13,427 bases of DNA, from positions 1 through 13,427 of IMG/VR virus record IMGVR_UViG_2529292909_000008; one strand, 5' to 3'. The DNA is from a virus (lineage: Duplodnaviria > Heunggongvirae > Uroviricota > Caudoviricetes). Below are positions 11,881-13,427 of the stretch, in pieces. Every line of letters starts with the position of its first letter. Positions within the stretch are counted from its first letter, which is position 1. A program made the translations under genes and the position numbers. The notes beneath the pieces were generated by a model. That model saw only the letters and a program-made list of their open reading frames with translations, did no database searches and had not been told where the DNA came from.

Positions 11881-11906
11881 TTCCTGAAAACCTCGGTTTA
11901 CGGGAA
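11881..11906. other. gix/hix-like 26-bp crossover site (invertase-proximal)
   Basis: TTCCTGAAAACC-TC-GGTTTACGGGAA: two 12-bp half-sites in inverted orientation around a 2-bp core, close to the gix sequence TTCCTGTAAACC-GA-GGTTTTGGATAA (from memory). Located 66 bp upstream of the invertase start. Confidence 0.6.
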
Positions 11907-12253
11907 ACGGTGAATAAGGCGGCGAATGCTCTGCCATCGGACGGCACCGCCGTTGCCGCGAATAGACTCGCCACCCCAAGAAATATTAATGGGGTTCCCT
12001 TTGACGGGACGCAGGACATAAACATCACTTCTGGTATAACACAGCAGGATGCGGATTCCCGATATATCCAGGATATCAGGCTGGGAGCAGAGAACAGGCA
12101 GGTAATGTACGTGGGGCATATTACTCTGCGTACGGTAATGTTATGGCAGGCCTGCAGATTGACAGTAAAGTTGATGCTTCAAACGATTTTATAGCATTCA
12201 GACCCCTGCAAAAATTAGTCGGAGGTACATGGATTACGGTATCTCAGTTATAA
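11895..12253 (+). CDS. Alternative, currently unexpressed tail-fibre C-terminal cassette inside the invertible segment; possible internal frameshift
   Basis: Begins at the crossover site with [42 protein letters not shown]..., a near-repeat of the region of the minus-strand tail-fibre gene just inside its crossover site. The frame ends at 12194; a second frame open from 12005 continues to a tail-fibre-like terminus (...AFRPLQKLVGGTWITVSQL*) at 12253, nearer the tfa start. Confidence 0.5.
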
Positions 12254-12304
12254 ATAGTCAGTAAATAATATATTTTAAAACAGATTTATTTCCAGGAGGA
12301 TTTT

Positions 12305-12826
12305 ATGGAACTAAAAAATATAACCCGTTATTATCCTGAAAATATGCCATATGGTAATAATGTTCAGTATTTCCAGAGTGAAGATGGTAAGGATTTCTAC
12401 GAATCCCTGCCATTATTCACCAAAAAATATAAACTTTGCATAACACCTGACAGCGGCGTTATCTGCTCAATATCACAGGACGCCTCGGCGCTGTATCCTG
12501 CGGGGTTTTCTGTGGTTGAGGTCGATGAACTCCCTGAAGGCACGGATATTTCAGGAAACTGGAAGTTTGATAATGGCATAATCTCCCGTATTCCGGTTAA
12601 CTACGCAAGAAAACTGGAAGCAATGCGCCAGTCATATCTTAATCAGGCATATGAAAAAATTAATGACTGGAGAACGGAGCTACAACTGGGCACCATCAGC
12701 GATGAAGACAGAGCAGCACTTACCCAATGGATGGCATACATCAGTCAGGTGAAGAAAATGGAACTACCCGCCATTAAAACAGAAGCTGAATTTAACGCCA
12801 TTAAATGGCCTGAGCAGCCACAGTAA
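12305..12826 (+). CDS. Tail fibre assembly protein (Tfa/U family chaperone)
   Basis: 173 aa with GGAGGA Shine-Dalgarno; C-terminal region ...DEDRAALTQWMAYISQVKKMELPAIKTEAEFNAIKWPEQPQ* is typical of Tfa proteins; sits directly downstream of the alternative tail-fibre cassette. Confidence 0.85.
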   Translation: MELKNITRYYPENMPYGNNVQYFQSEDGKDFYESLPLFTKKYKLCITPDSGVICSISQDASALYPAGFSVVEVDELPEGTDISGNWKFDNGIISRIPVNYARKLEAMRQSYLNQAYEKINDWRTELQLGTISDEDRAALTQWMAYISQVKKMELPAIKTEAEFNAIKWPEQPQ

Positions 12827-12829
12827 TAA

Positions 12830-12849
12830 AGAAGGCCGGAAGGCCTTCT
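12830..12849. terminator. Perfect 8-bp hairpin between the convergent tfa and tail-fibre stops (bidirectional terminator candidate)
   Basis: AGAAGGCC-ggaa-GGCCTTCT between stops at 12824-12829 and 12858-12860; the minus-strand transcript would carry a U-rich tail after it. Confidence 0.5.
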
Positions 12850-12857
12850 GAATATCA

Positions 12858-13427
12858 TTATATACTTGCAGCCGTCACCCATGCTCCATTTAACAGATAC
12901 TGCAACGGCCGGTAATACACGCCGCCGACGTTATCTGCCGTATTCTTACCGACATCCTGTACTTTAATTCCGGTAAGAACATTGCCGCCCCCCAGATTCA
13001 GATCCCAGCTTTCCCATGTTCCGGGCATATGTGCGGTCACCGACCCCAGTCTTATGGCGGTTACTGTTCCTGATGAGATAGTGATATCCTGCGTCCCGTC
13101 AAAGGGAACACCATTAATTGTGTGGGCATTTGCCAGCCTGTTCGCGGCAACGGCGGTGCCGTCCGATGGCAGGGCATTCGCCGCCCTGTTTACCGTTTCC
13201 CGTAAACCGACGTTATCGATAAAAGCCCCTTTATCCGGAATGTCTGCGCCGTTCTGCTCCCTGCGCAGGTAACGGTTATCACCTTCGCTTTTGCTGTAAA
13301 CATCCAGATTATTACGGGCGGTTCCCTTATTCTCCAGGTCGGCGAGATTCTGATCCTTCGCCAGGGCATTAACGTCAGCGGGACCAAGACCGTTTTTTGT
13401 GGCAAGCGTCCCCAGACCAAGATAACC
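12858..13427 (-). CDS. Phage tail fibre protein, 3' part (constant region plus currently fused variable C-terminal domain); 5' end beyond the window
   Basis: Minus-strand frame is open from the window edge to TAA at 12858-12860 and reads [99 protein letters not shown]...GAWVTAASI*. The first start codon in frame is only at 13040, which is why the track lists just 60 aa. Confidence 0.8.
13197..13222. other. gix/hix-like crossover site inside the tail-fibre gene (junction of constant and variable parts)
   Basis: TTCCCGTAAACC-GA-CGTTATCGATAA; its inner half-site and the following 19 bp are identical to those of the site at 11881-11906 in inverted orientation, while the outer half-sites differ. 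Confidence 0.6.

Follow-up and report, generated by a model that had tools for sequence, protein, structure and literature searches.

How does a phage provide for two alternative tail-fibre tips with a single fibre-assembly gene? The question is raised by a 13,427-nucleotide (nt) stretch of viral DNA (IMG/VR record IMGVR_UViG_2529292909_000008, positions 1 to 13,427), referred to here as the window. Near its end, a segment bounded by two inverted recombination sites carries alternative C-terminal tips for a tail-fibre gene, S, together with one copy of the chaperone gene tfa. Positions 6613-13427 of the window make up the right-hand end of a transposable Mu-like prophage of Escherichia coli, of the Sp18 type. 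Taken as a whole, the segment at 11893-13210 is best explained as the equivalent of the Mu G segment with an adjacent invertase gene of the Gin family on the late-gene strand, a reading to which we assign a probability of about 85%. The element is a genuine Gin-type invertible tail-fibre switch, and with its pair of tips, termed alpha and gamma, it is a new member of a family of Sp18-like Mu prophages whose invertible region is already in print (PMC2669165). A preliminary description of the window, made from the letters without database searches, had the anatomy of the switch and its interpretation right overall; corrections concern the reading frame of one tip cassette and the adjacent invertase gene (11243-11815), which it did not mention and which carries motif-scrambling indels.

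Anatomy of the Invertible Segment

The features of the segment and its flanks are as follows, in window positions.

11243..11815, minus strand: Gin/Pin-family serine DNA invertase, 190 residues; residues 56-75 scrambled in the window
11881..11906: invertase-side crossover site, TTCCTGAAAACC TC GGTTTACGGGAA, central dinucleotide 11893-11894; 21/26 matches to Mu gix; boundary of the natural inversion
11886..12034: left repeat arm
11895..12253, plus strand: silent tip cassette, type gamma, tfa-proximal; frameshifted in the window by a 1-base deletion at 12110
12254..12304, plus strand: AT-rich non-coding spacer before tfa, 51 nt
12305..12826, plus strand: tfa, the sole tail-fibre assembly (chaperone) gene; 173 residues, intact; Pfam PF02413
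12830..12849: hairpin between the convergent tfa and S stops; perfect 8-bp stem, 4-nt loop
12858..13068, minus strand: expressed tip, type alpha, tfa-distal; tblastn matches to SfMu S', P1-like S and P2-like H
13069..13217: right repeat arm, encoding a common 45-residue stretch ending ...FDGTQDI
13197..13222: fibre-side crossover site, TTCCCGTAAACC GA CGTTATCGATAA, central dinucleotide 13209-13210; 22/26 matches to Mu gix; boundary of the natural inversion
13211..13427, minus strand: constant part of the tail-fibre gene S; start codon ~310 nt past the window end

The two 26-bp gix-like sites are mutually inverted, bound a segment of 1318 bp (11893-13210) and coincide with the codons of S that hold gix in Mu (...N-V/L-G-L-R/Q-E-T-V-N...). 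Each is an imperfect palindrome with a 2-bp core, TC in one and GA in the other, as in sites of the Gin/Hin type. In the window there are just two occurrences of the core motif WAACSTCGGTTTAC, one per strand, where 0.02 would be expected by chance. The gix/hix-like sites of the preliminary description are thus borne out by their alignment to gix and by their codons; a comparison with gix, on which that proposal could have failed, found the similarity. The sites overlap the outer ends of an imperfect inverted repeat of about 149 nt, made up of a block of 86 nt with 90% identity (11886-11971 against 13132-13217) and a block of 50 nt with 84% identity (11985-12034 against 13069-13118). A repeat had been described here before with a length of about 135 bp; its existence stands and its length is corrected. 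On both strands, the arms encode the same peptide, starting GLRETVN(K/R), as had also been observed. A 13-nt direct repeat, TAAAACAGAKTTA, is present just outside the invertase-side site (11859-11871) and again in the tfa spacer (12276-12288), and a sequence resembling it, AAAACAGATTAT, is found in the corresponding spacer of O157-type prophages (below). This direct repeat may be due to chance.

On the minus strand, nothing interrupts the frame between the window end at 13427 and a stop at 12858, so the domain at 12858-13196 is the C-terminus of the fibre gene and not part of a separate complete gene, a possibility that had been raised. The frame also confirms that, in the captured orientation, the constant part is fused to the domain ending at 12858 and tfa converges on it. 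The fibre coding sequence of the closely related prophage of strain FORC_029 specifies 293 residues, of which residues 1-198 are 47% identical to residues 1-191 of Mu S, and the protein matches chain A of PDB 5YVQ with an E-value of 1e-45. In strain NCCP 13983 an intact gamma cassette is fused to S, giving a 296-residue fibre followed by tfa. This is the arrangement that inversion had been predicted to produce from the 11895-12253 cassette. The cassette itself had been taken for an open frame, which it is not in the window: the 1-base deletion at 12110 leads to a stop at 12194. The intact gamma tip reads ...FRPLQKLVGGTWITVSQL, and the cassette is promoterless. Flipping the segment exchanges the last 116-119 codons of S, of which the first ~45 are near-identical repeat and the last 70-75 encode the receptor-binding tip.

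Both tips end in a ~70-residue domain of the Mu S/P2 H/P1 S tip family, both match the C-terminal tip of chain A in 5YVQ, and all tips of the prophage family keep a C-terminal motif, (Y/F)(Y/F)R(P/Q/A)xQ...NGxW, that is present in Mu S too. A comparison with Mu S, S', U and U' proposed earlier thus gave matches of the tips to the Mu S tip, and of Tfa to U and U' (below). The match of gamma to the Mu S tip has an E-value of 1e-9, and that of alpha is weak (E-value 0.001, Mu S residues 436-503). In tblastn searches alpha was 47-52% identical to the tips of SfMu S' (47%), P1-like S (52%) and P2-like H. Over the last 80 residues, identity of alpha to these nearest relatives is 43-49% (P1-like 49%, SfMu 44%), and that of alpha and the second distal tip type, beta, to their closest relatives among the same three is 44-57%. 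The best solved match to the alpha tip, PDB 9CUY, was set aside; its source paper models only the N-terminus and does not discuss a chaperone. Annotation of these genes has systematic gaps: the fibre often goes under the label "hypothetical protein", while the silent tip is entered as a truncated pseudogene or as a "phage tail protein" in its own right.

Inversion at the Crossover Sites

The prophages of FORC_029 and NCCP 13983 occupy the same insertion site in genomes whose sizes are 1 bp apart, and they are identical over 13 kb except inside the segment. The FORC_029 sequence, inverted between the site centres, equals that of NCCP 13983 with 0 mismatches. An O157-type copy flipped in silico at its site centres was found with 100.0% identity over 901 nt in FORC_044, O157:H7 2-6-2 and 07_3636. 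The segment inverts in nature, in relatives of the window prophage. With a Mu-like prophage as its setting, sites aligned to gix and both orientations in near-isogenic genomes, the earlier view of a G-segment-like invertible host-range switch is upheld.

Because the repeat arms differ, the exchange point can be bracketed. The bracket is 19 nt for the window type and 13 nt for the O157 type; both start right at the central dinucleotide, and one base farther out the two sites already differ. The exact cleavage position is beyond the resolution of sequence alone. The brackets fit Gin-type cleavage at the core and argue against random homologous exchange along the 149-nt repeat. By the Gin/Hin paradigm, each of the two sites would be occupied by invertase dimers, the synapse would be assembled with the help of an enhancer that binds Fis and lies towards the 5' end of the invertase gene, and cleavage at the central TC/GA followed by a 180-degree rotation would invert the DNA.

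The arms themselves show patchy homogenisation. In 2012C-4502 (locus L029), the two arms are identical to each other at positions 14-29, counted from the site centre, and STEC2018-553 (locus L022) has its arm markers in other combinations than the window. A displaced crossover was considered for 2012C-4502, which has seven differences from the predicted junction, and was rejected: the differences are not reciprocal on the other arm, and they therefore reflect arm homogenisation or allelic variation. Homogenisation of this kind suggests that some gene conversion takes place within the repeat besides inversion at the core sites.

These same patches, and a repeat that is far longer than the 34 bp of Mu and 84-90% identical, are what would be expected if the segment flipped by RecA-dependent homologous recombination between the 149-nt inverted repeats and not by an invertase acting at the 26-bp sites. 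We consider this route quite unlikely. In both resolvable pairs the crossover falls within 13 or 19 nt at the outer end of the ~150-nt repeat, and an intact Gin homologue and gix-like sites are conserved in most of the diverged family members examined. In addition, sequencing and polymerase chain reaction showed the invertible locus of the Mu prophage in enteropathogenic E. coli (EPEC) E2348/69 to be phase-variable, with a mixed population in a single culture (PMC4272514), although this prophage may lie outside the Sp18-like family.

The Invertase and the Private Indels of the Window Copy

The intact invertase of FORC_029 is 72% identical to Mu Gin and matches the Resolvase (PF00239) and HTH_7 (PF02796) families with 175 and 56 bits. 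In the window the Resolvase match falls to 125 bits and is split in two. A compensated pair of indels (11588 and 11648) causes residues 56-75 to read EYPAGLETGSPWTQYAAPCP instead of DTLLVWKLDRLGRSMQHLVL; the 20 residues replaced include the conserved DTLxVWKLDRLGRS motif (DTLLVWKLDRLGRS). Ser9 is kept, and the catalytic core of the window invertase is not intact. In Mu, a Fis-dependent enhancer lies within the 5' part of the invertase gene. The 5' region of the invertase gene here has a mean column identity of 82% to Mu gin over 303 columns, which include the site and the promoter-proximal region.

The window prophage has five private single-base indels relative to FORC_029 and nine further copies, besides seven substitutions relative to FORC_029. 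Insertions at 9435 and 9668 shorten an esterase gene from 684 to 499 codons, and the deletion at 12110 frameshifts the silent gamma tip. The indels were found in none of 5426 complete E. coli genomes and in none of the nine further copies. The expressed fibre frame, as far as it lies within the window, and tfa are both intact. Since the invertase motif and the silent tip are broken by indels that no other copy shares, this copy is locked or mis-sequenced: probably its switch is dead, or the sequence carries errors. Either the source assembly contains indel errors or the prophage is decaying and locked in the captured orientation.

A Single tfa Gene throughout the Family

The tfa product matches Pfam Caudo_TAP (PF02413) with 69.2 bits (cut-off 22.1), is 28% identical to Mu U and 32% to Mu U', and matches chain B of 5YVQ with an E-value of 4e-16. 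Within the family the gene is under purifying selection, with a ratio of nonsynonymous to synonymous divergence (dN/dS) of 0.09-0.22. The stops of tfa and the fibre gene are only 31 bp apart in the window, and the hairpin fills this gap, which leaves no room for a second tfa. Two tips with one tfa had been described previously, and the count is confirmed together with the lack of space for another. The hairpin has energies of -14.8 and -14.4 kcal/mol on the two strands (z about -4) and was also reported by a terminator scan. It is found at the same position in all relatives examined, where the gap is 28-34 bp and holds no gene remnant. The hairpin is probably a bidirectional terminator.

The family was found in ~231 of the 5426 complete E. 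coli genomes. The copies examined were those of STEC2017-197, STEC299, SCU-171, STEC1587/CP55_Sichuan, FWSEC0008, CI5 and STEC2018-553, the O157 type, and a Mu-like insert in an Stx2c phage. These copies are 10-20% apart in nucleotides and have different tips, and every one has the one-tfa layout. In a collection of assemblies the exact Tfa protein is indexed in 4146 blocks, with one tfa in every context shown. The gene always adjoins the invertase-proximal tip, in the same orientation, and never the distal tip. Distal tips are of two related types, alpha and beta, both with ...ADN(V/I)GGVYYRP(L/V)Q..., and proximal tips are of at least four types: gamma, delta, epsilon and zeta. Neither the window nor any family member examined has one tfa (U or U') per orientation in the manner of Mu. 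The comparison indicates that the single tfa is a conserved design of the family and not a recent loss or defect. Of the "reduced or asymmetric form" in the preliminary description, the asymmetry stands; reduction in the sense of recent decay does not, as the layout is common to all diverged members. A profile search of the genome contigs with the Tfa alignment returned a single unrelated P2-like locus, and full-text literature searches found no paper discussing the single-tfa asymmetry.

The five private indels of the window copy might be taken to mean that the single tfa reflects the recent decay of a defective prophage, in whose lineage a second tfa was deleted. This is extremely improbable. 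The layout is the same in copies 10-20% diverged and with different tips, the O157 Sp18-like prophages among them, across the ~231 genomes, and in every context shown for the 4146 blocks; the position at which a second tfa would lie is a 28-34-bp gap bearing the hairpin and no gene remnant; and the FORC_029 prophage is apparently complete.

The delta-type loci (L004, L017 and L019) retain the 3' end of an epsilon-type tip (...INGSWRTAGST) between the delta stop and the tfa spacer. New tips have evidently been spliced in by recombination upstream of the older one. Some strains (DLI.5a, TOE17, AST46 and CI5) carry two or more family copies in opposite orientations within one genome. The second copy in AST46 is heavily decayed: frameshifts affect the invertase as well as both tips, and large stretches are deleted internally.

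Possible Provision of Tfa in the Convergent Orientation

With S fused to the tfa-proximal tip, S, the tip and tfa would be read in one late transcript. In the orientation captured in the window, tfa instead converges on S across the hairpin. The convergent orientation is the commoner one in assemblies. Junction queries for the alpha and gamma tips found 24 and 7 genomes, respectively, of which 3 of the 24 are a locked deletion form, and those of the O157 type found 180 tfa-convergent genomes against 16. In the locked derivative, the deletion has taken out the greater part of both the invertase gene and the proximal tip but has spared S and the convergent tfa, which is intact. Its deletion junction is identical in M3 (locus L007, 2380-2800), JE86-ST02 (locus L023) and S1-CAM-01-A (locus L024), although the prophage is inserted in lateral flgL, citF and bcsA, respectively, and locked copies carry either alpha or beta tips. 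Distal tips are intact open reading frames in most copies examined. From the three insertion sites of the locked derivative, the predominance of the convergent state and the intact distal tips we conclude that this orientation is probably functional, with clonal descent and exchange between prophages as qualifications of all three observations. The simplest reading suggested by the locked form is that a phage fixed in the convergent state went on infecting and transposing.

The same observations bear on the proposal that the convergent orientation is an OFF state, in which the fibre misfolds for want of a co-transcribed chaperone and the switch alternates infectious with non-infectious particles instead of two host ranges. 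That Mu-type fibres need their Tfa, as stated in the part of PMC9608196 that summarises North et al. (2019), would agree with such a state, as would the failure to find an expression signal for tfa in the convergent orientation (below). The orientation ratios (180:16 and 24:7), the locked derivative at three insertion sites in unrelated strains and the intact distal tips make it very unlikely.

If the distal tips are functional, one Tfa may serve both. Tfa proteins of the type found in the window (T1) are at least 87% identical to it in STEC299 and CI5, and their N-domains are 84-86% identical in STEC2017-197 and STEC299. The T1 type co-occurs with two distal and four proximal tip types, and the tip pairs measured are 34-43% identical. 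By comparison, the N-domains of Mu U, L-413C G, SfMu U' and P2-like G are 82-95% identical, and the tips that they serve 55-59%. Co-occurrence of T1 with six tip types suggests a generalist chaperone. The summary of North et al. in PMC9608196 has TfaMu binding the distal end of the fibre through its variable N-terminal domain and staying on the virion. The model that follows, to which we give even odds, is that a generalist Tfa would serve both tips and that signals within the conserved spacer would allow its production even while tfa converges on S.

Expression of tfa while it converges on S is a requirement of this generalist model and its unproven step. Spacers before tfa in the family are of three types, with a conserved part of 51-86 nt, and by eye each is closely conserved across the loci printed. 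The distance from fibre stop to tfa start in Mu, SfMu, P1-like, P2-like and L-413C phages, by comparison, is 0-3 nt. The conserved spacer is thus suggestive of a source of expression signals.

Several observations weigh against an active switch with a functional, Tfa-supplied convergent orientation. Scans for sigma-70 promoters in the window, the locked M3 copy and the O157 copy gave none above shuffle expectation upstream of tfa; they cover all three spacer types, and no promoter-like element stands out. The Mu C-protein site (ATTATGCCCCAATAACC), recovered at Mu Pmom, had no counterpart in the FORC_029-type prophage. As neither a promoter nor a late-promoter box for tfa was identified, its expression in the convergent orientation is deduced and not observed. 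A candidate late box, CCGCAAAWCCKGCCCC, is common to the regions upstream of lys and I in the FORC_029 prophage and confined to those two places. The predominance of one orientation could come from clonal descent, especially in O157:H7, and not from function, and the deletion allele could have been passed on by phage-to-phage recombination even if the locked phage itself does not infect. Synonymous divergence (dS) between tfa alleles in the locked copies is 0.41, and the region is mosaic. A dN/dS of 0.13 between these copies had been considered as proof of selection in the convergent state and was dropped for this reason: a dS of 0.41 means that the alleles were joined by recombination, which makes the ratio uninformative about the time after the deletion. 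As for the switch itself, the window invertase is without its conserved Asp/Arg motif, and no inversion would be expected of this copy if its sequence is correct; the basis for a putative Fis enhancer is the conserved DNA at the 5' end of the invertase gene.

A different account of the convergent orientation is that the distal alpha and beta tips fold without Tfa, which would then serve the proximal tips only, so that each flip would toggle both the tip and the presence of Tfa. A convergent late transcript would meet a strong hairpin before tfa, which is antisense to that transcript, and the scans found no tfa promoter. The gene always lies by a proximal and never by a distal tip; only two distal types were seen, both with ADN(V/I)GGVYYRP; and alpha matches the Mu S tip more weakly (E-value 0.001) than gamma does (1e-9). 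On the other hand, the closest relatives of alpha and beta (SfMu S', P1-like S and P2-like H) are each directly followed by tfa, so Tfa independence would be a departure. Moreover, the locked derivatives, which can express only the distal tip, all retain an intact tfa, and the conserved spacer has no counterpart in phages that co-transcribe tfa with the fibre gene. We regard Tfa-independent distal tips as possible, though less likely than the generalist Tfa. Mu Tfa stays on the tip and adds binding of its own to host cells. A switch between a chaperone-capped fibre, consisting of fibre and Tfa, and a naked fibre with a Tfa-independent tip is conceivable but doubtful. If this were true, alpha and beta would be the first tips of the Mu S type shown to be Tfa-independent.

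The element itself is ordinary biology, a Gin-family host-range switch in a family of prophages that came to light with the genome of O157 Sakai. Its wider interest is as a natural experiment on chaperone specificity, with one Tfa type found with six tips and co-transcribable with one of two per phage. The specificity with which Tfa recognises tips matters for the engineering of phage and tailocin host ranges. The survey also gives direct genome-level evidence of active switches in E. coli lineages, including O157 and other Shiga toxin-producing E. coli strains.

Genomic Setting

The prophage part of the window (6613-13427) is >99.8% identical to the right end of the complete Mu-like prophage of FORC_029. 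That prophage has genes for a repressor, ner, transposases A and B, gam, a Mor/C-type activator and lysis. Head genes, sheath, tube, tape measure and baseplate genes, S, the invertible segment and the invertase gene follow, and downstream of the invertase gene are genes for a SASA/DUF6645 esterase, DUF1378 and DUF826 proteins, com and mom. From tape measure and baseplate genes through S, segment and invertase to com and mom, the order of genes matches that of Mu, and the invertible element is placed between the baseplate genes and invertase/com/mom, like the G segment in Mu. The order S, convergent tfa, silent tip, invertase, SASA/DUF6645 protein, DUF1378, DUF826, com and mom is that of the Sp18-like prophages. 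In the window the SASA (sialate O-acetylesterase-like) gene is at 9658-11157 on the minus strand, directly downstream of the invertase gene. The 684-residue SASA protein of FORC_029 has a C-terminal DUF6645 domain and could be a receptor-modifying enzyme. RefSeq also annotates a "tRNA-OTHER" in the FORC_029 prophage (locus L016, 18463-18542, beyond the window), between head-morphogenesis and virion-morphogenesis genes.

Positions 1-6612 of the window are host DNA, encoding an autotransporter, an HTH_46 protein, an AmpH-like protein and SbmA.

364-2997: host gene
3040-3708: host gene
3709-4866: host gene
5271-6437: host gene

The prophage right end is at ~6613, directly past sbmA. The FORC_029 prophage is at another site, where it disrupts a fimbrial usher gene next to elfD; a difference in insertion sites is expected of a transposable phage.

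Comparison with Known Systems

Among the closest known counterparts is the G segment of Mu with its invertase, Gin. The position in a Mu-type genome and the division of S into constant and variable parts are the same. The sites match gix at 21-22 of 26 positions on the same codons, and the invertase gene is immediately downstream on the same strand, with 72% identity of its product to Gin. The fibre N-terminus is 47% identical, and Tfa 28-32%. The dimensions differ. The segment is 1.3 kb here and 3.06 kb in Mu, the fibre has 293-296 residues against 504, the variable parts 116-119 against ~330, and the inverted repeat is ~149 nt against 34. There is one tfa, where Mu has two, and it is preceded by a 51-nt spacer against 2 nt in Mu, with a hairpin between the convergent genes. 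Unlike in Mu, the SASA/DUF6645 esterase, DUF1378 and DUF826 genes intervene between invertase and com.

Another is Sp18, the Mu-like prophage of E. coli O157:H7 Sakai, which has the same arrangement gene for gene: S, convergent tfa, silent tip, invertase and DUF6645 protein. Its "invertible host-specificity region" is noted in PMC2669165, where the genes of that region are called "distinct from those of Mu". The fibre-side site of the O157 type is identical to that of the window and the constant part of S is ~90% identical in nucleotides. The tips are beta and epsilon, against alpha and gamma in the window; the Tfa is another allele, 61% identical overall, and the tfa spacer is of another type.

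In the C segment of P1 with its invertase, Cin, and in SfMu, an invertase of the Gin family also switches fibre C-termini. Mu, SfMu and the P1-like phage nevertheless each have two convergent tfa genes, one per orientation, and the window has one. The H segment of Salmonella has an invertase, Hin, and sites that are homologous to those described here. Hin flips a promoter, which switches a flagellin operon on or off, and does not swap a protein C-terminus, and the hin gene is inside the segment. With this promoter the H segment shows that invertible DNA can carry an expression signal, and tfa would need such a signal to be expressed independently in the segment of the window.

Finally, the complex of TfaMu with the S tip (PDB 5YVQ) provides a structural reference, in which Tfa of the window matches chain B and both of its tips match the tip of chain A, a likeness drawn from comparison of sequences. 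Each Mu tip has a chaperone gene of its own, unlike those of the segment described here, where two tips share a segment with one tfa.

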